DNA from: Minisyncoccia bacterium
GTDB taxonomy: Bacteria; Patescibacteriota; Minisyncoccia; Phycocordibacterales; UBA5272
Length of the DNA stretch: 64,000 nucleotides
NCBI GenBank assembly: GCA_038256975.1
Contig: JBBSJU010000001.1
Span: forward strand, 59,087 to 123,086
Direction of reading: 5' to 3'
How positions within the stretch are numbered: position 1 is the first letter of the stretch; each line of letters opens with the position of its first letter. The notes beneath the pieces were generated by a model. The model was not told the origin of the DNA and ran no database searches. It was given only the letters and a program-made list of their open reading frames with translations. A program made the position numbers and the translations under genes. Shown here in pieces: positions 12,567 through 52,662 of this stretch.

Positions 12567-13379
12567 ATGCAGTATCAATTTTTTGATATTCATGCTCATA
12601 TTCATGGCACTGAATATGACGCAGATCGTGATGGTCTGATGACTTCTTGTGCTCAGGAAAAAGTAGGAATCATTACTGTGGGTACGGACTACGAAGAGTC
12701 TGAAAAGGCAGTTTTGTGTGCACAAAAATATGAGCATGTTTTTGCAACAATTGGCATTCATCCAGTTGATCGTGTTTTAGATTTTGATTATGATCGGCTG
12801 AAAACAATCGCATTGAACGAAAAAGTTGTTGCTATTGGTGAGTGTGGACTCGATTACTATTGGCCGGCACATGACAATTGGAAAACAGGAGAGGAGATAG
12901 AGAAAGCCCGACAAAAGGAACTTTTTCAAAAACAAATAGAGCTTGCTGTAGAACTTAATCTTCCCCTTATGATTCATGGACGTCCGACAAAGAAGTCCAT
13001 GGATGCGTATGAAGATATTTTAGAGATTTTAAAAGAATGCCAAAAGGTACATGGTGCCAAAGTTCGGGGTAATGTGCACTTTTTTGCAGGTAACTTGTTT
13101 ATTGCAGAGCAATTTTGGAATCTTGGATTCACAACATCATTTACTGGAGTGATTACATTTACACATGATTACGATGAAGTGATAAAAATAGCTCCGCTTT
13201 CTATGCTCATGGCTGAAACTGATAGTCCGTACGCTACTCCTGTGCCACATCGAGGTACGCCGAATACTCCACTTTATGTTTGGCTTGTTTATCAAAAAAT
13301 AGCCGAGCTGAAAGGTGTCTCACTTCTAGAAGTGCAGAATCAATTTGAAGAAAATAGAAAACGAGTTTTTGGAATATAA
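12567..13379 (+). CDS. tatD: TatD family metal-dependent hydrolase / DNase
   Basis: FDIHAHI N-terminal His motif and TIM-barrel hydrolase pattern; 270 aa. Confidence 0.8.
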   Translation: MQYQFFDIHAHIHGTEYDADRDGLMTSCAQEKVGIITVGTDYEESEKAVLCAQKYEHVFATIGIHPVDRVLDFDYDRLKTIALNEKVVAIGECGLDYYWPAHDNWKTGEEIEKARQKELFQKQIELAVELNLPLMIHGRPTKKSMDAYEDILEILKECQKVHGAKVRGNVHFFAGNLFIAEQFWNLGFTTSFTGVITFTHDYDEVIKIAPLSMLMAETDSPYATPVPHRGTPNTPLYVWLVYQKIAELKGVSLLEVQNQFEENRKRVFGI

Positions 13380-13382
13380 GTC

Positions 13383-13500
13383 TTTTAAAAACCCGAGTTA
13401 TATATGCACACGTTCTCGCTTTGCCAAGCGAGCCGTTCCGCTCGACAGAATTTTCTGCTGAAAATTCGTCTGTGCGAGGCATATGTAATTCGGGTTTTTA
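13383..13500 (+). repeat. structured repeat element, family B copy 1 (79-nt conserved core at 13404-13482 inside a long closing stem)
   Basis: Core ATGCACACGTTCTCGCTTTGC.AAGCGAGCCG.TCCGCTCGA..GAATTTTCT...GCGAGGCAT recurs at 45373-45450. Flanking stem here is TTTAAAAACCCGAGTTATAT / ATGTAATTCGGGTTTTTAAA. Confidence 0.5.
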
Positions 13501-13563
13501 AAGTTCGGGAAAAGTTGACATATATACACTTTCTCGGTATGAATATGTTAAACCTCGCACAGT

Positions 13564-13788
13564 GTGAGGAGCATGGAGTGGGTCATGATGGTTATTGTAG
13601 TGATTGTTAAGTTGGTACTCATGATTGTGGGTCTTTGGTTGCTGACCCTGTTTGGCATGATTACCGCCCCTAATCTGTATGAATACGGAGAGAGTGAGCT
13701 ATTTCCAAAGGCGGTAAAGATTGTGTTGAGAAGGTATTTACTCGGAGGAATCACGGCAATTTTTCTCGCCGTGTTTATCCCGTACTGA
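13564..13788 (+). CDS. small hypothetical membrane protein (2 TM)
   Basis: Own -35/-10 at ~13515-13545 (TTGACA-17-TATGAAT) and own intrinsic terminator downstream; 74 aa, hydrophobic. Confidence 0.35.
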   Translation: MRSMEWVMMVIVVIVKLVLMIVGLWLLTLFGMITAPNLYEYGESELFPKAVKIVLRRYLLGGITAIFLAVFIPY

Positions 13789-13809
13789 TTTTTCAAGTTC
13801 CGAAAGCTC

Positions 13810-24200: not shown

Positions 24201-24228
24201 ACCTCTTGCATATCTAGAGCGAATAATA

Positions 24229-24295
24229 GTTTTTCTTTGGGTGGGGGAAGGTCTGGCAAAGAAAAACTATTTGTGAGTGAAGGATTTGCAAGAGG
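24229..24295 (+). repeat. repeat element family A copy 1 (hairpin with G-rich loop plus tail)
   Basis: TTTTTCTTTG-GGTGGGGGAAGGTCTGG-CAAAGAAAAA...GTGAGTGAAGGATTTGCAAGAGG is ~88% identical to 26874-26938. Confidence 0.5.
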
Positions 24296-26873: not shown

Positions 26874-26938
26874 TTTTTCTTTGAGTAGGGGAAGGTCTGG
26901 CAAAGAAAAATGTTTGTGAGTGAAGGATATGCAAGAGG
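26874..26938 (+). repeat. repeat element family A copy 2
   Basis: See 24229-24295; here it sits directly 5' of the next ORF, and its 3' end AAGAGG could serve as the RBS. Confidence 0.5.
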
Positions 26939-29374: not shown

Positions 29375-29455
29375 GCGCGTCGGCGCTGACCCAGTAGGTC
29401 ATTCTGCTGAATGAGGCGGGGTCGCGTAAATTTTCGTCAGAAAATTATACGTGAC
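29375..29455 (+). repeat. repeat element family C copy 1
   Basis: ACCCAGTAGGTCATTCTGCTGAATGAG plus flanks, related in inverted orientation to 49934-49960 (25/26 identical in the core). Confidence 0.45.
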
Positions 29456-33052: not shown

Positions 33053-33742
33053 ATGAATTCACAATCAGAGTTTATTTTCGCACTCAAAGACTCTTTCTAT
33101 GGTGTGCTTGAGAACGTTCTTATCTACGCTCCAAATGTTATTGTAGCGTTAGTTCTCTTTATTGTCGGTTGGTTCTTAGCTTCATGGATTGGTAAGGTGG
33201 TGGCAGCGCTTATTGGTTCTCTTAAGCTTGATGATGCGCTTGGTGCAACAGGGCTTCGTGAGTTAGCAAGTCGTGCTGGATTTGGATTGAACATCGGACA
33301 CGTACTTGGCGTATTTGTGAAATGGATGCTTATCATTATTGTGGCAACTGTTGCCTTCGATATGGTAGGGCTTTCGCAGATTAACGAGTCTCTTGCTCAA
33401 ATCTTGAGTTATATTCCAAACGTTATTGTAGCGGCAGTAGTTCTTATGATTACTGCGCTCGTTGCAGAATTTGTTGAAAAACTATCAACGGGTGGAGCTA
33501 AGGCGGCTGGAGTAAAGAAAGCAGGGGTTTTTGGAGTAGTAGCTCGCTGGTTTGTATGGATTGTTGGTATTACAACAGCCCTCGCACAACTTCAGGTTGC
33601 TGATGTCCTCGTGAGTCTTTTCCAAAGTCTTCTTACGGGTGTTGTAGCGGCAGTCGCTATTGCATTAGGTATTTCATTTGGTCTTGGCGGAAAGGAGGCT
33701 GCAGCTCGATATATTTCTCGGGTAGAGAAGGATATTGAATAG
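33053..33742 (+). CDS. hypothetical membrane protein with repeated TM-helix modules
   Basis: Repeated IPNVIVA(L/A)VLFIVG.../YIPNVIVAAVVLMI modules; 229 aa. Confidence 0.45.
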   Translation: MNSQSEFIFALKDSFYGVLENVLIYAPNVIVALVLFIVGWFLASWIGKVVAALIGSLKLDDALGATGLRELASRAGFGLNIGHVLGVFVKWMLIIIVATVAFDMVGLSQINESLAQILSYIPNVIVAAVVLMITALVAEFVEKLSTGGAKAAGVKKAGVFGVVARWFVWIVGITTALAQLQVADVLVSLFQSLLTGVVAAVAIALGISFGLGGKEAAARYISRVEKDIE

Positions 33743-33850
33743 AGCTTTACTTTTAAGACAAAAGAGGCCCCTAAAAGGGTCTTTTTTGTTTGCTTTTTGA
33801 GCAGAAAAGGGCTTAAAAAGGAGACTCTTCTTTTGGGTGTATAAATCCTA

Positions 33851-33878
33851 TTGACATCTATTTTTGCTCGTGTATACT
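33851..33878 (+). promoter_or_regulatory. sigma70-type promoter upstream of 23S rRNA
   Basis: TTGACA - 16 nt - TATACT. Confidence 0.5.
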
Positions 33879-34673
33879 AGGCTCTATCACTCAAAAATGT
33901 TAAAAGAAAAACCAAACCAACCAAGCGCCTAACGATTCAAGTCTCTTGAGTTGTACCGCTTGCAAGAGCGGTTTTTCTTTTACTAAAAAAGTGGTGCGTT
34001 GTTTGACAATTCAATTCTGTTCCTCGGGTATTTATCCCAAAACAATTTGGGGTCTTTTCTCCCGAGGAAACAGGTTCATAAAAACAAAGTAAGAAGCATT
34101 ACAGATGAAAAAATAAAAGGTACATCTGTAATGAACATGTATACGTCTTGAGTGGTCAAGACAAGTACATTTGGTTTTTACATTTCCTAATAGGAATGTA
34201 TGGGCGTACGGTGGATGCCTTGGTTCTGACGAGCGATGAAGGACGTAGTCTGGCTGCGATAAGTTTCGGGGAGGTGCCAAACAACCTTTGATCCGGAAAT
34301 TTCCGAATGAGGAAACTCCATGTGAGTAATGTCATGTGATCCCGCAAGGGAAGCGAACCCGATGAAGTGAAACATCTCAGTAATCGGAGGAAAATAAACT
34401 AAACAAGTATTTCGTAAGTAGCGGCGAGCGAAAGCGAAGAAGCCCAAACCGTTTGTAGCAATACAGGCGGGGTTGTAGGGCAGAGATGTCAATTATGAGG
34501 AGAGTTACAAAACGTGTGTTTAAAAGAAGTGCCTGGAACGGCACGCCATAGATGGTGATAGCCCAGTATTTGAAAAACACATGTCTCTCTAGTCTCTGTT
34601 CCTGAGTAATTCTAGACACGAATAGCTAGGATGAATCCACCAGCACTAACTGGTAAGGCTAAATATTGTCAGA

Positions 34674-34715
<42 letters not shown>

Positions 34716-35406
34716 GTCCGAAAGGACAGTGAAATAGACCTGAACCCGTATGCCTACAAGGAGTCAGAGCGGATATTTATATCCGTCATGGCGTGCCTAT
34801 TGAAGAATGAGCCAACGAGTTTTTATGTGCAGCTGGCTAAGGAAGAGAAACTTCTGGAGCCACAGGGAAACCGAGTGTTAATAGCGCGAAATTATAGTTG
34901 CACATAAAAGACCCGAAGCCAGAAGAGCTTACCATGAGCAGGGTGAAGTATTTCGAAAGAAGTATGGAGGCCCGAACCCGTAGATCGTTCAACTTCTTGG
35001 GATGACTTGTGGTAAGGAGTGAAAAGCTAATCGATTCTGGTAATAGCTGGTTCTCTCCGAAATAGTTTTAGGACTAGCGTCGCGTGTTCCTCTGAGGGGT
35101 AGAGCACTGGAAGGGTTCAACAGGGAGCAATCTCGTGAACCCTATCAAACTCCGAATACTCAGTAGTCAAGAACGCGGCAGTAAGACCGTGGGGGCGAAG
35201 CTTCACAGGTCAAAAGGGAAACAGCCCTGATCTCCAGTTAAGGTCCCAAAGTATATGCTAAGTGCAAAGTGAGGAGGTGAAATTTCGTAGACAATGAGGA
35301 TGTTGGCTTAGAAGCAGCCATCATTGAAAGATAGCGTAACAGCTCACTCATCGAGAGATTTTGCGCCACAGATAATCGGGGCTCAAGCATATCACCGAAA
35401 CTGAGG

Positions 35407-35549
35407 GCTTGTAGATTTCATACAGGATTTTGTGTGACATAGTGTTAGTGGATAGCACGTCACAAAATAGTGGAGGCTTCCGTTCGATTCGGAACTCACA
35501 CAAATTCTGTCACAACTGCATAGTTGTGTCCTGTATGAAATCTATAAGC
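35407..35549 (+). other. ~140-nt intervening/expansion stem-loop in 23S at the helix-45 position
   Basis: GCTTGTAGATTTCATACAGG ... CCTGTATGAAATCTATAAGC is a 20-bp stem. It replaces the short E. coli hairpin GCGGCAGCGACGCUUAUGCGUUG between CACCGAAGCUG and GGUAGGGGAGCGUUC. Confidence 0.5.
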
Positions 35550-36305
35550 GGTAGGAGAGTGTTCCGCTCTGCGTTGAAGTAGAAGGGGTGACCCACTATG
35601 GAGCGTGCGGAAGTACAAATGTTGGCACAAGTAACCACAATGTGGGTGAGATCCCCACACGTCGAAAGAACAAGGTTTTCTTCGCCATGATAATCATCGA
35701 AGAGTTAGTCGGCCCTAAGGGAATGGCTCGCGCCGGACCCGATGGACAAAAGGTTAATATTCCTTTACTTCTTTATACAGCGATGGGAGGACGAAGGGCA
35801 GTAACATACGCATATCAATGGATTTGTGTTTGTATTGTGAGGGAGCATTCTAGGTAAATCCGGGTGCTGATTTAAATATCGATTCCAAGCAATGCATAAA
35901 CCGGCGGGGCAACCCAAAGGAATGTATGTGAGCGCGCTTCCAAGAAAAGTCTCTAGCTTCAACGATAATACCGTTGAAATCTCTTCTTTTTTCGCTCTTT
36001 ATTGAGTGAAATGAGAAGGGAAATATGTATAGTGAAACCGTACCGCAAACCGACACAGGTGTTCAGGTCGAGTAGACCAAGACGAACGAGTGATTGATCC
36101 CCAAGGAACTCGGCAAAAAAGCAGCCGTAAGTTAGCAATAAGGCTTGCCCGTAGCAATACGGGCCGCAGCGAAAGTTTCCCTGGCAACTGTTTACCAAAA
36201 ACACAGCTCCCTGCGAACTCGTAAGAGTATGTATAGGGGGTGACACCTGACCAATGCCAGAAGGTCAAATATCGGTGGTCGCAAGGCTGACTGATATAAG
36301 CCCTG

Positions 36306-36346
<41 letters not shown>

Positions 36347-37004
36347 GTTCCTTGTCTGGTAAGTTCAGACGCGCACGAATGGTGTAATGACTGGGGAACT
36401 GTCTCGGGGATTAGCTCGGTGAAAATACAATACCGGTGAAGATGCCGGTTACCTGCAGTTAGACGAAAAGACCCCAGGAGCTTTACTGCAACTTGATATT
36501 GAAAATACGTTTGTGATGCGTAGCATAGGTGGGAGAGGTTGAAGTCACGGTCTCGGCTGTGATGGACTCGAAATATGAAATACCACTCTTCAAACGGGTA
36601 TGCACTAACGTGTTTAAGAAAATTTTACGCAGACAGTATCTGGCGGGTAGTTTTACTGGGGCGGTACCCTCCTAAAGGGTAACGGAGGGGTTTATTAAGG
36701 TCAGTTAGGTGTGAATGGAAACCATACCGATAGTGTAAGGGCATAAACTGGCTTTACTGTAAGACGGGCATGTCAAGCAGTTGCGAAAGCAGAACCTAGT
36801 GAACCGATGGTTCGCATTAGACGCGACCGAAGATTAACGGATAGAAGCTACTCTGGGGATAACAGGCTAGTTCCGCCTAAGAGTTCATATCGACGGCGGA
36901 GTTCGGCACCTCGATGTCGGCTCATCTTATCCTGGTGGTGAAGAAGCTACCAAGGGTATGGCTGTTCGCCATTTAAAAAGATACGCGAGCTGGGTTCAAA
37001 CCGT

Positions 37005-37318
37005 AGAGGAGGTAATTGCAAAGACGTTCCAAGTTTTTGTAATTGGCTTCTCTTAGTTTGAACCCGAGGGTTAAGACTAAACTTAACAAAAAGACATCAA
37101 TCACGGCGGTGTGTTGTAGTGATACAACATGACAAGTCAACTAATATCGGGAAAATCCTATTCGTAGGACAATTCCGAGGGAACTTTATGCAAATAAAGA
37201 CCCGTAGAGACTATACGTTGGCACACTTACATAAAAAATAAGTGCAAGCTCTAGTCCGATCCCTTCAGTAATGAAGGTTCTTGCAACCGAGACCACGGCA
37301 AGATATAAAACTGAAATG
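37005..37318 (+). other. putative group I intron (~314 nt, no ORF) in 23S domain V
   Basis: Interrupts GGGTTCAAACCGT|...|CGTGAGACAGGTTGG (E. coli GGGUUUAGAACGUCGUGAGACAG). 5' exon ends in U and the insert ends in G. Internal AGACTAAA ... TAGTCC resembles the P7 GACUA/UAGUC pair. Confidence 0.55.
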
Positions 37319-37369
37319 CGTGAGACAGGTTGGTCTCCTATCTACTGCAGGCGTTGATATTTGAGGATA

Positions 37370-37401
<32 letters not shown>

Positions 37402-37922
37402 GAACCTCTGGTGTAAGGGCTCTGGCGCCAGCCGGACCGCCCTGTAGCTATGTTCGGAACGGATAACTTCTGAAAGCATCTAAGAAGGAAGCCGCATCCA
37501 AGATAAGATATCGTTATTAGGGTCGTAAGAGATGATTACGTTGATAGGCTTTAGGTGTAAGTGCAGTAATGCATTCAGCCGAGAAGTACTAATTACCCGA
37601 ATTCCTATTAGGAAATGTGAAAACCAATGTCAGATAAATTGTTTTAAATGAAAAGAAGGGAGGGTCCGCCCTCCACACAAGGTGTATGTGCAGACTTTGT
37701 GTGGAGGGCGGAAGAAGCGAAGGTTTTACTGTTTGCTTGTCGATGTCCGTATTCCTAGGCTTCTATGCCGCGAGGAAAAGGTCTTCTGATGACAACCATT
37801 GTCAGTAAAAACGAGCATGCCTCCTTCAGGGACTGGTGTTCCGTACGAGACTCCGCCATGTGCGTATGTCTCTCGGTCGGGTGTAAGCTCAACACCAGTC
37901 ACCCCCTTCTTTGTTCTTTGTG

Positions 37923-37998
37923 TGGGGCCGTAGCTCAGTTGCGAGAGCGTCCGCATCGCATGCGGAAGGTCATGGGTTCAATCCCCATCGGCTCCACC
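37923..37998 (+). tRNA. tRNA-Ala (anticodon CGC), CCA encoded
   Basis: GGGGCCGTAGCTCAGTTG...; G3:U70 identity pair; anticodon loop AUCGCAU; T-arm GGTTCAATCC. Confidence 0.85.
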
Positions 37999-38022
37999 AC
38001 CCAAATCTTGATTTTATGAATA

Positions 38023-38099
38023 GGGAGACGTAGCTCAACACTTAGAGCGCATGTGGCGTTCCCACGTGAGGGTTGAGGGTGAAAATCCCTTCGTCTCCT
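38023..38099 (+). ncRNA. tRNA-like element (possible degenerate tRNA; nominal anticodon GUU)
   Basis: Cloverleaf possible: acceptor GGAGACG/CGTCTCC, D-arm GCTC..GAGC. But the anticodon loop GCGUUCC lacks U33 and a purine at 37, and the T-loop UGAAAAU lacks T-Psi-C. Confidence 0.3.
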
Positions 38100-38145
38100 T
38101 CATATAGTACAGTCAAGTACTTTTCTTTGAGTGTATGTTGAATGT

Positions 38146-38262
38146 TCTGTCTTGGTGGTTTGTCACGGTGGAAACACCTCTTCCCATTCCGAACAGAGTC
38201 GTTAAGCACCGCTGAACCGATGATAGTCCTTCGGGGCAAAAGTAGGTTGCTGCCAAGACAGA
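38146..38262 (+). rRNA. rrf: 5S ribosomal RNA
   Basis: TCTGTCTTGGTGG...CCCATTCCGAACAGAGTCGTTAAGCACCGCTGAACCGATGATAGT...CTGCCAAGACAGA; helix I pairs the two ends. Confidence 0.85.
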
Positions 38263-44213: not shown

Positions 44214-45272
44214 ATGCAAGGGAAGACCATTTTTATTACTGGCGGTGCTGGATATGTGGGTGCAATGCTGTGCGACCAATTTTCCAAACGTGCTGATGTC
44301 GAAAAAGTTATCACTATCGACAAAGAACCAGAAACAGATCTGACAAAAGGCAATGCAAAGATTTTGTATATACAACAAAATCTCGCCGATGATGGGTGGC
44401 AGACTATTATTAATGAGCATAAGCCGTCGATTATTATCCATACCGCCTGGCAAATTCGCGAAATCTATGGCAATCGGCCACTTTCTTGGAAATGGAATAT
44501 TGAAGGGTCGGACAAGGTGTTTGATTTTGCTTTTTCACACGAATATGTAGAGCGCCTTACGCATTTTTCTACAGTGGCTTCCTATGGTGCATTTGCCGAA
44601 AATACACTTGAGCATCGTTTTACTGAGAATGAATCATTTCGCAAAACAAACTACCTATATGCTGAGGAGAAACGTATAGCAGAAGAACATCTGCAAGAAA
44701 AATATCAAGAACTCAAAAAACAAGGGAAAAAACTCCCTCAGGTTTCGATTATTCGCCCAGCCGCTATCACCGGCCCCCGGGGTCGTTACGAACGTATTCG
44801 TTTTGGGCTATATGGTATTTTAAAAAATCAACTCAAACAAAGCTTCATTCACCGAGCTCTTTCGTATGTAACAGTATTTGTTCCAGTAACTAAAAAATGG
44901 TTGCGCCAATATGTTCATGAAGATGATATTACTGATATTGTCGAGCTTCTTTCATTTGGAAATGTAAGTCATGAATATGAAGCATTTAATGCCTCTCCAT
45001 CTGGTAGTGTGATTCTCGCCAAAGATATGGCTCGCATTGTTGGTAAGACTCCTGTGCGTATTCATCCATATTTGATTCGGGGTGCATTCTTCTTTTTTTG
45101 GCATCTAACCCGAGGGAGAATTCCAACAGCAGAGGGAAGTTGGAAAGGGTATTCATATCCGATTGCGGTTGACGGCTCAAAAATCACAAAAATGTATGAT
45201 TATCAGTACAAAATGTCTTCAACTGAAGCGTTTGTAAAAAATGAGGGGAGGTACAAGGTTGATCTTTCATAA
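44214..45272 (+). CDS. NAD-dependent epimerase/dehydratase family protein
   Basis: GKTIFITGGAGYVGAMLCDQ Rossmann GxxGxxG motif at the N-terminus. Confidence 0.75.
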   Translation: MQGKTIFITGGAGYVGAMLCDQFSKRADVEKVITIDKEPETDLTKGNAKILYIQQNLADDGWQTIINEHKPSIIIHTAWQIREIYGNRPLSWKWNIEGSDKVFDFAFSHEYVERLTHFSTVASYGAFAENTLEHRFTENESFRKTNYLYAEEKRIAEEHLQEKYQELKKQGKKLPQVSIIRPAAITGPRGRYERIRFGLYGILKNQLKQSFIHRALSYVTVFVPVTKKWLRQYVHEDDITDIVELLSFGNVSHEYEAFNASPSGSVILAKDMARIVGKTPVRIHPYLIRGAFFFFWHLTRGRIPTAEGSWKGYSYPIAVDGSKITKMYDYQYKMSSTEAFVKNEGRYKVDLS

Positions 45273-45275
45273 GTA

Positions 45276-45305
45276 TTGACAAGTATCGTATATCCATGTT
45301 ATAAT
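45276..45305 (+). promoter_or_regulatory. consensus sigma70-type promoter
   Basis: TTGACA - 18 nt - TATAAT. Confidence 0.5.
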
Positions 45306-45332
45306 ACAAGAAGTCAAAAAGCTCTTTAAAAC

Positions 45333-45505
45333 AAGGTTTGCCCTAGCTTTAAGTACTCAAACTCCGCAGGAACACAAAGGAAATGCACACGTTCTCGCTT
45401 TGCAAAGCGAGCCGCTCCGCTCGATGAATTTTCTACTAAAAATTCATCTGCGCGAGGCATTTCCTTTGTGTCTTGCTTCGTTTCAGTTTTGAATGTTTAA
45501 AGCTA
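45333..45505 (+). repeat. structured repeat element family B copy 2 (78-nt core at 45373-45450 nested in two closing stems)
   Basis: Core is near-identical to 13404-13482. Inner stem CACAAAGGAA/TTCCTTTGTG; outer stem AAGGTTTGCCCTAGCTTTAA/TTAAAGCTATGGCAAACCT. Confidence 0.5.
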
Positions 45506-45575
45506 TGGCAAACCTGCAAGATTGCAGTTTAGGTCCGCTAGCAGAAGCACACGTGCTTCAAAATGGAGAAAAGAC

Positions 45576-46229
45576 ATGTCTTATTCTTTCGAACAAGTCG
45601 CCCAACTCGTCAACAAATTGAAAAAGATGGGTTGGGGCCCCGAGTGTGTCACGGCACTCGGACAAGCCGACACTCGAAAGTTCCGTGCCATCGAGACGAT
45701 TCTCGAGGGCAAGACCCTCGAGGAAGCAATCAAAGCTGCCGTCGCGATGAAAGTGGATGTGCTCGCCGATGACACTTCCCACTTGCGCTTTCTCGAATCG
45801 GTGGAGCTCGCCCCGACTTCAGGCAAGGTGACACTTGCTCAGTCGAGCGACATTTTTAACGTGGACCTCAACTTCAAGAATTGGGGCACCGATAAGTCGG
45901 GAAGCGATACTCAGGGACAAACGGCACTGATCTACGAGATGAAGAAAGACGGCACTTTCGTCGCTCTCTTCAACTCGTTCGGAGCCGACCTCTCGAGCCT
46001 TGTGTGGCAACAAGGTCAGATTCGTGAGTTCTGTGCTTCGCACCGCCACCTTCTCTGTCAGGATGGTTACGGCACTTTCTTCCTCTTCGAGGTCGACAAG
46101 AAGCTGTTCGTTGCCGACGTGATCGTGGGTGGCGGCAGGCTCTGCGCCGATGTCCGCCGCGTTTCGGACGACGGCGTCTGGGGTGCCGCCTTTCGTCGTC
46201 GGTTGGTGGTACCGCAACAGACCATTTGA
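45576..46229 (+). CDS. hypothetical protein encoded in a GC-rich (~57% GC) islet
   Basis: GGAG 7 nt upstream of ATG; 217 aa with no recognisable domain. Long antisense ORFs overlapping it are attributed to the high GC. Confidence 0.5.
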   Translation: MSYSFEQVAQLVNKLKKMGWGPECVTALGQADTRKFRAIETILEGKTLEEAIKAAVAMKVDVLADDTSHLRFLESVELAPTSGKVTLAQSSDIFNVDLNFKNWGTDKSGSDTQGQTALIYEMKKDGTFVALFNSFGADLSSLVWQQGQIREFCASHRHLLCQDGYGTFFLFEVDKKLFVADVIVGGGRLCADVRRVSDDGVWGAAFRRRLVVPQQTI

Positions 46230-46257
46230 TTTTTTGCTCTAAACCTTTGAATCTTTG

Positions 46258-46306
46258 TCCCTTGGACCCTTTCGATTTGTTTCGGAAGGGTCCAAGGGAT
46301 TTTTTG
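46258..46306 (+). terminator. strong intrinsic terminator
   Basis: GTCCCTTGGACCCTT tcgatttgtttcgg AAGGGTCCAAGGGATTTTTTG. Confidence 0.7.
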
Positions 46307-46484
46307 TATACTGTATACGCATGAAGAAAATGATGCGGAATGTCTCCGAGAAAAATGTTGCTTCCTACAAAGGGATGTTGGGGTGGGGGAATGGGTGGGG
46401 GTTGGAGCAGGTGCTTGAAAAAGCAACGCTGGGGGATCTTTTATAGACTTGTGTTTTTGTGGTTTTTGTGTAATTATATGCCCC

Positions 46485-47135
46485 ATGATTACACTTTCAG
46501 CCACGACGCGAGACGCGTTCCCATCAGTCGAAAAAGCACGTGAAGCCGGATTCATTCCTGCTGTATTTTACGGTTCACACAAAGCATCGACTTCTATTTT
46601 TGTTTCTCAAGCTCTTTTTACTAAAACTCTTAAAGATGCTGGAGAGTCAACGCTAATCACTATTGATACTGGTTCTGAAAAAGTATCAGTCCTGATTCAT
46701 GATGTGCAGTTTGACCCAGTAACAGACCGAGCGCTTCATGTTGACTTCTATGCAGTTGATGCAAACGAGAAACTAGAAGTTGGAGTGAAACTTGAGTTCG
46801 TCGGAGTTTCTGAAGCAGTGAAGAGTCTTGGTGGAACATTGGTGAAAGTAGCACATGAACTTGAAGTGAAGTGTCTTCCTAAAGATCTTCCTCATGAAAT
46901 CGTTGTTGATATCTCGAAACTCGAGAATCTCGATAGCGTTATTACCGTTGCCGACCTTACACTTCCATCCGGAGTAGTTGCAAAAGCATCTGCGGAAGAA
47001 GTTATCGCATCAATTGCTGTTGGAAAAGAAGAAGATCTTTCAGCTCCAGTTGCAGGCCCTGATCTTGAGGCTATTGAAGTAGAAAAGAAGGGTAAGAAGG
47101 ATGAAGAGGGCACAGAAACCCCCGCTGCGGAATAA
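46485..47135 (+). CDS. rplY: 50S ribosomal protein L25 / general stress protein Ctc
   Basis: MITLSATTRDAFPSVEKAREAGFIPAVFYG... L25 beta-barrel plus acidic C-terminal extension. Confidence 0.8.
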   Translation: MITLSATTRDAFPSVEKAREAGFIPAVFYGSHKASTSIFVSQALFTKTLKDAGESTLITIDTGSEKVSVLIHDVQFDPVTDRALHVDFYAVDANEKLEVGVKLEFVGVSEAVKSLGGTLVKVAHELEVKCLPKDLPHEIVVDISKLENLDSVITVADLTLPSGVVAKASAEEVIASIAVGKEEDLSAPVAGPDLEAIEVEKKGKKDEEGTETPAAE

Positions 47136-47207
47136 GTTTTTAGGTCACATCTATAAAAAACAGCCGTTACTATGAGTATAGACGGCTGTTTTGCTATACT
47201 AAAAATT

Positions 47208-48551
47208 ATGAATATTCCTTTGAAAGTTTTTTTGATTGCACTTTTGTTTGCGAGCGTTCTTTCTCCGAAGCTTTCAAACGCCCAGCAAGCGTGTCCAACA
47301 GCAAGTCCTGAAAAGGAAATTTGTGAGGCAAAATTGCGTGAAGAACTAGCAAAAGTTGAAGCAGAAATTGCCGAGAAACAAAGCCAAATTAAAGAGACAC
47401 AGGCTGAGGCAAAAACCCTAAAAGGTGATATTTCGGTGTTGAACAATAAGATAGATCAGTCTGCTTTGAAGATTAAATCTCACGGTATTGTCATTACTAA
47501 GATCAGCGGTGAGATTACAACGAAACAAAGTACAATACAGCAACTTGATCAAAAGCTCGACAGGCAGCGTGCTGCACTTGCTCAGATACTACGTCGCAGT
47601 GAAGAGATTGAAAAAACTTCTCTTATTGAGGGCGCACTCAGGAAACAAACACTCTCTGATTTTGTGTCGCAAGCAGAGGAATATCGCTTAGTAAAGCTTG
47701 CTATGAAAGATACTTTTGAAGAAGTAAAAGAAACAAAAGAAGAAACACAGGAAGTAAAAGAGTCTCTTGAGACAAAGAAAACTGAGCAAGAAAAATTAAA
47801 GATTCAGCAAGAAGTTGAACGAAAAAAGGCTGAACAAAACAAACAGGTAAAAGCGGTCGTACTAAAAGAAACACAAGGAAAGGAAAGTGAGTACCAAAAA
47901 GATCTTAAAGAAAAACAAGCAAAGGCTGCGGCAATTCGAAATGCTCTTTTTGCCCTTCGTGACGCAAGTGCGATTAAGTTTGGCGACGCACTTGCATATG
48001 CAAATGAAGCATTTGAGATTACCGGTGTTCGCCCAGCATTTATTCTAGCTATCCTTACTCAGGAATCAAACTTAGGGAAAAATACAGGACGCTGTTATTT
48101 GAAAAATGTAGATGGTTCTGGGGTAAACACAAGTGGCACTGTATTTAAAAATGTCATGAGTCCAACGCGTGACGTACCTCCATATTTGGAAGTTGCAAAG
48201 GAACTTGGTTTTGATCCGTTCGAACGACTTATTTCGTGCCCACTTAATGTTGGTTGGGGTGGCGCGATGGGACCAGCACAGTTCATTGCATCAACATGGA
48301 ACGGGTACAAGGCGAAGGTTGCAGCCGCTGAAGGTAAAGCAATAGCAAACCCATGGTTACCACGAGACGCCATTATGGCATCTGCTTTTCTTCATAAAGA
48401 TAACGGTGCCGTGACCGATGAACGTAACGCTGCCTGTCGATACTACTCAGGACGGTCATGTTCGAGTGTTTCAAATTCGTATGGAAATAGCGTTGTGGCC
48501 CTTGCCAAGAAGATTCAAGCTGAGCAGATTAACCCGTTGCAAGGCTTCTAG
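47208..48551 (+). CDS. secreted coiled-coil protein with C-terminal lysozyme-like / lytic-transglycosylase-like domain
   Basis: Signal peptide and long coiled coil. C-terminal AILTQESNLGKNTGRCY...WGGAMGPAQFIASTW resembles the SLT catalytic-Glu context. Confidence 0.5.
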   Translation: MNIPLKVFLIALLFASVLSPKLSNAQQACPTASPEKEICEAKLREELAKVEAEIAEKQSQIKETQAEAKTLKGDISVLNNKIDQSALKIKSHGIVITKISGEITTKQSTIQQLDQKLDRQRAALAQILRRSEEIEKTSLIEGALRKQTLSDFVSQAEEYRLVKLAMKDTFEEVKETKEETQEVKESLETKKTEQEKLKIQQEVERKKAEQNKQVKAVVLKETQGKESEYQKDLKEKQAKAAAIRNALFALRDASAIKFGDALAYANEAFEITGVRPAFILAILTQESNLGKNTGRCYLKNVDGSGVNTSGTVFKNVMSPTRDVPPYLEVAKELGFDPFERLISCPLNVGWGGAMGPAQFIASTWNGYKAKVAAAEGKAIANPWLPRDAIMASAFLHKDNGAVTDERNAACRYYSGRSCSSVSNSYGNSVVALAKKIQAEQINPLQGF

Positions 48552-49872: not shown

Positions 49873-49886
49873 GGTTTGGGAACACT

Positions 49887-50011
49887 GTCTGCGAAATACT
49901 TTTGAACCGTCGCATATGTTTTCGTGAAAATTGCTCATTCAGTAGAATGACCTACTGGGTGATTCTCGACCCGTCGGTCTGCGAAACACGGTTCAAAAGT
50001 ATTTCGCAGAC
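49887..50011 (+). repeat. family C copy 2 inside a 23-bp inverted repeat; candidate structured leader of rpsB
   Basis: GTCTGCGAAATACTTTTGAACCG ... CGGTTCAAAAGTATTTCGCAGAC encloses CTCATTCAGTAGAATGACCTACTGGGT. A proximal GTCTGCGAAA copy offers an alternative pairing. Confidence 0.45.
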
Positions 50012-50079
50012 GGCTTGAAAGTTGTCCATGTGAGCCTTGAATTTTGACAAGATATCTGATACTATTGCCCAATAATTAT

Positions 50080-52553: not shown

Positions 52554-52662
52554 GATTGTAATTATGAATTATTTTTTGTAAACCCGTCACTCATAAGTAG
52601 TTTTTCTCTGCCAGACCTTACCCTACCCAAAGAAAAACTACTTATTCGTTTTTTGCATACTA

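Follow-up and report, generated by a model that had tools for sequence, protein, structure and literature searches.

The segment examined here, 45276-45575, lies in a window of 64,000 nt (the whole stretch analysed, contig JBBSJU010000001.1, positions 59,087 to 123,086, of a Minisyncoccia bacterium), between an epimerase gene that ends at 45272 and a gene for a 217-aa protein at 45576-46229. We find that it is the promoter and structured 5' leader of the variable-protein (target) gene of a diversity-generating retroelement (DGR) that has decayed, and that promoter, leader and gene move as one cassette among differing genomic contexts in Patescibacteria-like genomes. In bacteria, targeted hypermutation is chiefly the work of DGRs, which are particularly frequent in the candidate phyla radiation (CPR)/Patescibacteria; to our knowledge, next to nothing has been established about the expression of target genes and template RNAs in this group. 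The leader hairpin also holds one of the two copies in the window of a structured repeat, family B. The features are listed below, with L numbers for related loci; A3 is an alignment of 15 leader sequences, A6 one of 11 sequences with the window's hairpin-tip insertion removed in silico, and R1 a covariance model of family B.

45276-45305, + strand: sigma-70-type promoter, TTGACA at 45276-45281 and TATAAT at 45300-45305, 12/12 consensus positions
45321-45334, + strand: 5' pyrimidine tract GCUCUUUAAAACAA, conserved in A3 and A6; homologs have GUUCUUU(U)CAUA
45334-45515, + strand: nested hairpin of 182 nt, from the RNA fold
45334-45353, + strand: 5' strand of hairpin P1, conserved base UUUGCC(A/C)UAGC..., with covariation in A3 and pairing in A6
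45354-45382, + strand: 5' arm of the lineage-specific extension of P1, pairing with 45461-45495 up to the edge of the core
45383-45460, + strand: family B core, copy 2, 78 nt, from repeat detection, alignment, BLAST, folds and model R1 (114 bits)
45461-45495, + strand: 3' arm of the lineage-specific extension of P1, from comparison with L072/L073
45496-45515, + strand: 3' strand of P1, conserved base ...AGCUAUGGCAAAC, from the leader alignments
45514-45527, + strand: small hairpin P2, CUGCA-AGAU-UGCAG, covarying across leaders
45528-45542, + strand: conserved single-stranded tract UUUAGGUCCGCUAGC, (U)CAGGCCCGCUAGC in A6
45544-45559, + strand: palindromic hairpin P3, GAAGCACACGUGCUUC; homologs have GGCACAUGUGCC there
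45565-45582, + strand: Shine-Dalgarno GGAG (45565-45568) and start-codon hairpin AAGACAUGUCUU (45571-82), whose loop contains the AUG (45576-45578)
45576-46229, + strand: DGR variable-protein (target) gene, 217 aa, 55.7% GC, without a Pfam domain
46106-46211, + strand: variable repeat (VR), whose 3' end, CGGTTGGTGGTA, resembles an initiation-of-mutagenic-homing (IMH) site, from comparison with the L072 template repeat (TR)
46257-46306, + strand: 19-bp hairpin (46257-46300) and T-run, a DGR target-recognition hairpin or terminator, kept in L072 and L081
46324-46440, + strand: remnant of a reverse transcriptase (RT) gene, its last ~39 codons (117 nt), from tblastn with the L072 RT (E = 2e-11)
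13384-13502, + strand: family B copy 1, whole hairpin (core 13404-13481), fold z = -9.5, R1 score 130 bits

The 217-aa product has 25 homologs, one of them named as from a Patescibacteria group bacterium. Homolog names and the rRNA layout point to a Patescibacteria-like host. Look-ups of window proteins for exact matches gave no record. A Pfam search found no domain in it, Foldseek found no match between its protein model and the PDB, and its relatives were not seen in a viral contig collection. Its place in a DGR is apparent from comparison with L072, where a protein 86% identical is encoded and the gene is followed by TR, bAvd on the opposite strand and RVT_1. Between the window VR and the L072 TR there are 20 mismatches, every one of them at a TR adenine (20/20, with 27 A in the TR) and none at the 79 other positions. 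The identical adenine-only signature is carried by the VR/TR pairs of L081 and L083 themselves. The tract CGGTTGGTGGTA is common to VR and TR, whose sequences diverge beyond it. The order target-TR-bAvd-RVT_1 recurs in L081/L082, L083 and L091, and is that of architecture B3 (target, TR, avd in reverse orientation, RT), which is reported for 90% of CPR DGRs (Wu et al. 2018, PMC5758913). As in those DGRs, the relatives place bAvd on the - strand and RVT_1 on the + strand, VR and TR differ specifically at adenines, and the VR lies at the C-terminal end, with an IMH-like tract and a hairpin behind it that may act in retrohoming. A C-type-lectin-like variable domain would be a further, putative likeness.

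Unlike the CPR DGRs described, the window holds an orphan target. No TR, avd or intact RT was found in its 64 kb, and only the RT stub is left. The hairpin at 46257-46300 and the conserved TTTTTTGTATACTGTATA that follows it are fused directly to the RT tail at 46324-46440, from which it follows that ~1.6 kb with the TR, avd and most of the RT was deleted. As only an RT remnant and no avd is present, we class the gene as a decayed or orphan target rather than as part of an active DGR, and with TR, avd and most of the RT gone its VR is frozen. A comparable loss of DGR components is seen in L075. The locus thus offers a clean example of DGR decay, with an orphan target, a frozen VR and an RT stub side by side.

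A reading of the sequence alone, made before this analysis (hereafter the sequence-only reading), had called the gene GC-rich and foreign-looking. The gene does stand out (55.7% GC versus 41.4% in the remaining window). Across 12 loci the target gene exceeds its surroundings, by 4-16 points in 11 of them and by 2.6 points in L086, which makes the foreign look a trait of the family. The same reading had offered, as an alternative, that family B marks the integration boundary of the GC-rich islet. This finds no support: the gene does belong to a mobile, GC-rich DGR islet, but that islet begins at the promoter, just past the end of the epimerase gene (stop at 45272), and so encloses family B. At four-fold degenerate sites, the target gene (window 45576-46100 versus L072 126-650) is 87% identical (n = 75), compared with 56% between housekeeping genes of the window and those of L106, and the downstream neighbours of the cassette differ, being L25 in the window and L5 in L072. 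The TatD protein of L106 is also encoded on L107, and L107 and L072 come from one run, SRR18749950. If L072 and L107 represent one organism, this sequence comparison suggests that the DGR cassette was recently transferred or recombined.

The promoter that the sequence-only reading had placed at 45276-45305 is present, with an 18-nt spacer and, in addition, a TGn at 45297-45299 that makes it an extended -10 promoter. It is the sole 12/12 promoter-like site on the + strand in the scanned interval 44500-47500. Homologous target genes have an equivalent promoter, TTGAC(A/T)-17/18-TAT(A/T)AT, at an equal distance upstream. The RNA from 45306 to 45590 folds at -99.7 kcal/mol, versus -66.1 +/- 4.3 in 200 shuffles (z = -7.85), and not one shuffle (0/200) folds as well as the native RNA. 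The nested stem that had been described as ~170 nt long is there and measures 182 nt; a stem base conserved among leaders, an extension specific to the lineage and the family B core make up its three layers. That this core sits inside the leader hairpin (45383-45460, ~90% identical to 13404-13481) and that GGAG and the ATG of the 45576 gene follow the hairpin also agree with what had been read.

The promoter and a structured leader of ~140 nt recur before DGR target genes at 13 other distinct loci. The ancestral leader consists, in order, of a GYUCUUU tract, P1, P2, a CCGCUAGC tract, the palindromic P3, the ribosome-binding site (RBS) and a hairpin whose loop contains the AUG; homologs have the same palindrome about their AUG. 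The base of P1 is conserved in sequence (UUUGCCAUAGC / GCUAUGGCAAAC), and its tip is free to vary. RNAalifold predicts 19 P1 pairs in A3, of which 14 show compensatory changes, and also a further helix, P0, in which the 5' pyrimidine tract meets the purine-rich stretch at the RBS. In A6, the 29 pairs of P0, P1 and P2 are paired in 95.6% of cells, versus 34-51% when the partners are slid along one another (P1 alone, 97.1%; P0 alone, 93.9%), and 13 pairs are changed on both sides, versus 6.5 +/- 1.3 in shuffles (0/500). P2 covaries as CCAC/GUGG, CCAAC/GUUGG, CCUAA/UUAGG and CUCAA/UUGAG.

A covariance model of the leader (R2), run over 387 kb including the whole window, matched exactly once before each target gene and nowhere else. 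L091 has two R2 matches and two different target open reading frames (ORFs), with one leader each. At L091 4075-4816 the second of these precedes a different ORF, of 205 aa, in the same DGR locus, ahead of avd/RT, which ties the leader to DGR targets generally rather than to one protein family. Rfam searches at gathering thresholds found nothing in the window besides rRNA and tRNA; 45200-45650 at E <= 10 gave a lone snoRNA noise match of 16.5 bits; and five homolog loci at E <= 1 gave sub-threshold miRNA-like hairpin noise and a weak RT-7 match of 22 bits in L080. The text of the CPR DGR survey makes no mention of a promoter, hairpin or secondary structure there (PMC5758913); a conserved promoter and structured leader before the targets are thus a further point of difference from the systems as described. 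We therefore present the covarying DGR-target leader as a candidate new RNA motif without an Rfam family. With ~15 independent examples, a covarying, target-specific leader gives a concrete handle on DGR regulation.

P3 (45544-45559) duplicates the sequence of the start-codon hairpin (45571-45582), and in a comparison that took in the homolog leaders of L083, L085, L087, L089 and L091 the two shift together between leader subgroups: GGCACAUGUGCC occurs with AGACAUGUCU in one, and GCCAUGAGUAAUGGC with GUCAUGAGUAAUGAC in the other. The likeness suggests that P3 mimics the initiation site or that a binding site has been duplicated.

How might such a leader act? It may control translation initiation, with the RBS/AUG region tied up in P0 or in the start hairpin. 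As in RBS-sequestering leaders (RNA thermometers, ribosomal-protein leaders, translational riboswitches), pairing between the 5' pyrimidine tract and the RBS closes a domain of several hairpins and the AUG is placed in a hairpin loop; unlike them, the DGR-target leader has no Rfam match and has in P3 a duplicate of the start-codon hairpin's sequence, a trait that we could not place in any known class. The 5' tract may also, or instead, serve as a boxA-type antitermination signal. The boxA of E. coli rrn operons is UGCUCUUUAACAA, and the window tract GCUCUUUAAAACAA resembles it by eye, the consensus being that of E. coli and perhaps not that of the host. The L090 tract, GUUCAUUGAAAC, is boxA-like and lacks anti-RBS complementarity. 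In the region upstream of the 23S gene of the window (33730-34188) we found only an ambiguous boxA candidate, GUUGUUUGACAA, which overlaps a TTGACA.

The layout of intact loci bears on this second possibility. There, the target promoter is the only consensus promoter on the + strand, and downstream of the gene come, in order, the VR hairpin, which carries a T-run, ~250 conserved nt, the TR and a second hairpin with a T-run. A polymerase made resistant to termination after leaving the target promoter would account for this arrangement. The ~250 nt between VR hairpin and TR are conserved (L072 850-1093; L081 4725-4972; L083 3355-3606) and include UUUCACGGUUACGGCUUUGAAAGUCUG and GGUGGACUU.UAGGUCC in the three intact DGRs; directly 3' of the TR stands a CUCC...GGAG hairpin with a T-run (L072, L081, L083). 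The DGR template RNA probably has the ~250-nt stretch as its structured 5' portion and this hairpin as its terminator. CRISPR arrays offer a precedent for boxA elements that stand before long non-coding units (Stringer et al. 2020, PMC7665894). The leader resembles the boxA/nut signals of rrn leaders, lambda nut and CRISPR-array leaders (PMC7665894) in having a G(C/U)UCUUU...A-rich tract near the transcript's 5' end, then a hairpin, and in preceding a unit with a long untranslated stretch in intact DGR loci. It differs in that the match is one made by eye to the E. coli consensus and that the tract is equally readable as the anti-RBS strand.

Taken further, the leader would be a new nut-like element that drives read-through into the TR RNA, and family B a new small RNA excised by RNase III. 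On such a scheme, a boxA-type tract and hairpins would let the polymerase pass the VR hairpin and its T-run and so make the TR RNA, while family B would represent a new class of small structured RNA, cut out of host untranslated regions (UTRs), with its three-way junction set in a long stem that serves for processing. Were this true, expression of the target would be coupled to the supply of mutagenic template. We regard this combined scheme as quite doubtful.

Where, then, does family B belong? In other leaders P1 is ~45-75 nt long, compared with 182 nt in the window, and the extra ~140 nt at the tip of the window's P1 (45354-45495) consist of two imperfectly complementary arms and the 78-nt core. 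L072 and L073, on truncated contigs, share the 3' half of this tip insertion; near the core, the 45461-45495 arm has diverged from theirs at about half its positions, and the remaining leader is ~95% identical. By alignment and by model R1, family B is present in none of the 13 other distinct homologous leaders, nor in the divergent L090/L093 type. Family B was thus added to the P1 tip in one lineage. The sequence-only reading had seen in the whole arrangement a cis-regulatory leader: a conserved, structured leader is real, and the proposal that family B is its regulatory element finds no support, since homologous leaders do without it.

This result bears most directly on the idea that family B is a sensing element, a riboswitch or attenuator, for the downstream gene. 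It lies between a consensus promoter and an RBS and is highly structured and conserved, as such an element would be. Against this, the 13 leaders that lack it keep every other leader element, and the RBS-proximal helices (P0, P3 and the start hairpin) belong to the ancestral leader and not to family B. No U-tract follows the hairpin at 45515, so the hairpin is not an intrinsic attenuator. Nor does Rfam hold a matching family, the three-way junction has only 3 unpaired nucleotides and offers little space for a ligand pocket, and the second copy is outside any 5' UTR. Family B would accordingly not be a ligand sensor for the 45576 gene, and we find the sensing idea scarcely credible.

The second copy is copy 1, immediately behind tatD, whose stop codon is at 13379, and 33 nt ahead of the -35 element of a TTGACA promoter (13515). 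As it follows the tatD stop and precedes that promoter, it is not in a 5' UTR there. The cores at 13404-13481 and 45383-45460 are the only two in the window; a 19-mer derived from the core, with 3 mismatches allowed, matches twice in the window versus 0.01 expected. Both copies are oriented like their flanking genes, and neither has its own promoter; transcripts would carry copy 1 in the tatD 3' UTR and copy 2 in the DGR-target 5' UTR. Relatives differ at tatD. In L106-L109 (TatD 89% identical) hairpin, promoter and small ORF are all present; L111-L113 (TatD 79%) have the promoter and an unrelated 88-aa ORF, without the hairpin; and in L110 (TatD 88%) hairpin, promoter and ORF are all absent. 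As relatives without the core are also without the stem, the unit gained or lost at tatD is the whole hairpin and not the core alone.

The stretch from tatD to the CCGAAAGC terminator is itself a variable cassette slot, in which a conserved promoter, AAGTTGACA..., drives non-homologous small ORFs. The slot spans 13504-13800 in the window, 8620-8905 in L106, 10815-11170 in L111 and 10813-10830 in L110; it encodes two-transmembrane proteins of 74 aa and ~68 aa or a basic protein of 88 aa, and is empty in L110. One scenario, in which the core was inserted into the loop of an older terminator at tatD, was ruled out by L111, which has the promoter and no hairpin.

Copy 1 and its ortholog in L106 allow selection on the element to be gauged. 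The core is identical at 75 of 78 positions (96%; binomial P = 1e-15), where four-fold degenerate sites of the two are 56% identical (n = 825). The hairpin arms of copy 1 are 62% (5' arm) and 45% (3' arm) identical, and still pair despite their divergence. By these comparisons, the core is under strong purifying selection and the arms are selected for pairing only. The core is not a coding sequence: its ATG frame stops after 14 codons in copy 2 and extends over 68 in copy 1, with a 1-nt indel between the copies.

All three full family B sequences fold alike (3/3, z = -8.3 to -9.5). The core forms a three-way junction, whose closing stem runs on into ATGC/GCAT, with hairpin A, CUCGCUUUGCAAAGCGAG, hairpin B, GAUGAAUUUU...AAAAUUCAUC, and a 3-nt junction strand, ACA. 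Hairpin A reads CG..CUCGCUU-loop-AAGCGAG.CG and hairpin B reads CUCCGC..GAU(A)GAAUUUUC-loop-GAAAAUUC(G/A)UC.GCG.GAG. In an alignment of the three sequences 89.6% of cells are paired and nine pairs are changed on both sides, eight of which belong to the outer stem. Substitutions in the core leave every stem pair intact: one is compensatory (U-A to C-G) and two produce G.U. The sole unpaired cell falls in hairpin B, where the optional pair at the base of the loop reads C.A in copy 2. Folding favours the + strand over the - strand by 1-6 kcal/mol (5 G.U pairs versus 1 A.C mismatch), which is weak evidence for an RNA of the + strand.

These observations can be set against the possibility that family B is a selfish miniature mobile element (of the kind of miniature inverted-repeat transposable elements, repetitive extragenic palindromic (REP) sequences or enterobacterial repetitive intergenic consensus (ERIC) sequences), which inserts into intergenic hairpins or brings them about and is kept where it is harmless, its RNA structure incidental. 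Two dispersed copies with sharp borders, a presence/absence polymorphism among relatives at both loci, a core bracketed by AT..AT with inverted ATGC/GCAT ends, and the other nested-hairpin repeat families of the window, found in both orientations, would all suit such an element. However, a dead insertion should drift, and the orthologous core is 96% identical next to flanks at 45-62% and neutral sites at 56%. The indel at tatD is the whole hairpin rather than the core alone, and terminal inverted repeats longer than 4 nt are absent. The 4-nt ends, ATGC...GCAT, can equally be read as AT..AT direct flanks. Copy number also speaks against mobility, with two copies in 64 kb and, besides orthologs, none in ~340 kb of relatives' DNA.

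Wider searches did not extend the family. The pattern AAGCGAGCCGNTCCGCTCG found 71 loci in genome contigs, all chance matches in GC-rich genomes, the pattern being too strict in that the L106 ortholog has GAGTCG. A 23-base core pattern had 0 matches in metagenome contigs; of three core patterns run on viral contigs, two gave 0 and the third gave 25 AT-rich chance matches, none fitting R1; BLAST of the core against phage and plasmid records gave no match. The absence of copies from the genome, metagenome and viral pattern scans and from phage/plasmid BLAST again weighs against a mobile element, and a literature search for a paper on palindromic repeats in Patescibacteria found none. Like enterobacterial ERIC/IRU (intergenic repeat unit), Neisseria Correia, REP/BIME (bacterial interspersed mosaic element) and Rickettsia palindromic elements, which are small repeats transcribed along with genes, family B is a short (~80-130 nt) hairpin repeat in intergenic or UTR sites; it likewise shows presence/absence polymorphism, would be transcribed within mRNAs and has stems that are plausible RNase III substrates. 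Unlike them, it is conserved at the centre and variable in the arms, where elements bounded by terminal repeats show the opposite, and it is of very low copy number, with orthologs under purifying selection and no similarity found outside one lineage. Overall, we judge the mobile-element explanation unlikely.

A third possibility is that family B acts in DNA, as a cruciform or hairpin site for a recombinase, relaxase or other protein that marks the 5' edge of gene cassettes. Both copies lie <= ~80 nt from the promoter of a fast-changing or mobile gene unit: one adjoins the variable small-ORF cassette after tatD, where the ORF downstream of core and promoter is non-homologous between relatives, and the other is inside the mobile DGR cassette, which occurs in differing contexts (0.87 four-fold identity to a relative versus a genome average of 0.56). 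Hairpins A and B are, moreover, near-perfect palindromes. Yet in the DGR cassette family B is internal rather than at the edge, as the promoter and 5' leader upstream of it move with the gene in all homologs, and L111 has swapped its cassette without having family B. The G.U-compatible substitutions favour RNA over DNA, and no recombinase was identified. A DNA-level role of this kind seems to us very unlikely.

The reading that we favour, and consider likely, is that the locus combines a DGR-target leader with family B as a separate conserved module at the hairpin tip, which is not the regulatory element of the leader. Family B is a selectively maintained, structured and lineage-restricted module. 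Its two placements, a variable hairpin tip and a 3' UTR, are sites tolerant of insertion, and this placement, together with the conservation of the core and the drifting but complementary arms, leads us to view it as an autonomous RNA module. It may act as + strand RNA, as a self-contained protein-binding, processing or stabilising module, and its long, near-perfect closing stems would be plausible substrates for RNase III. The striking hairpin of the leader may thus be a passenger and not a regulator, and a 78-nt core that is 96% identical where neutral sites are near saturation points to an undescribed functional structured element in very small genomes.

Several observations pull the other way. 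On the side of the leader, true covariation in P0 is scant, with one double change and mostly wobble shifts, and L079 and L090/L093 have no obvious anti-RBS complementarity. On the side of family B, only three distinct full sequences and one 3' fragment were recovered, helices A and B are almost invariant, so that their pairing rests mainly on thermodynamics, and the + strand preference is weak. Conservation of the core could instead reflect a DNA-level site, and presence/absence among close relatives and the other nested-hairpin families also fit a mobile element.

Two further repeats of the window deserve mention beside family B. A third nested element, at 49885-50017 after prfB, has a 25-bp locus-specific outer stem around a core at 49934-49973 (fold z = -9.4), and this core is 83% reverse-complementary to 29376-29415. 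It is like family B in having a conserved centre in a private hairpin, and differs in occurring in both orientations. Another repeat has three copies of 88-95% identity, at 24227-24295, 26874-26938 and 52576-52640 (- strand), each with a hairpin GUUUUUCUUUGGGU(G/A)GGG.AAGGUCUGGCAAAGAAAAAC and then UGUGAGUGAAGGAU; this is presumably what the sequence-only reading had named family A.

Finally, the rRNA locus of the window has a 23S match of 3425 nt versus a 2925-nt model, which implies ~500 nt of insertion(s) (34188-38258). No 16S gene is adjacent upstream, and tRNA genes at 37924-37996 and 38024-38099 stand between the 23S and the 5S (38151-38258), a layout typical of CPR/Patescibacteria genomes.

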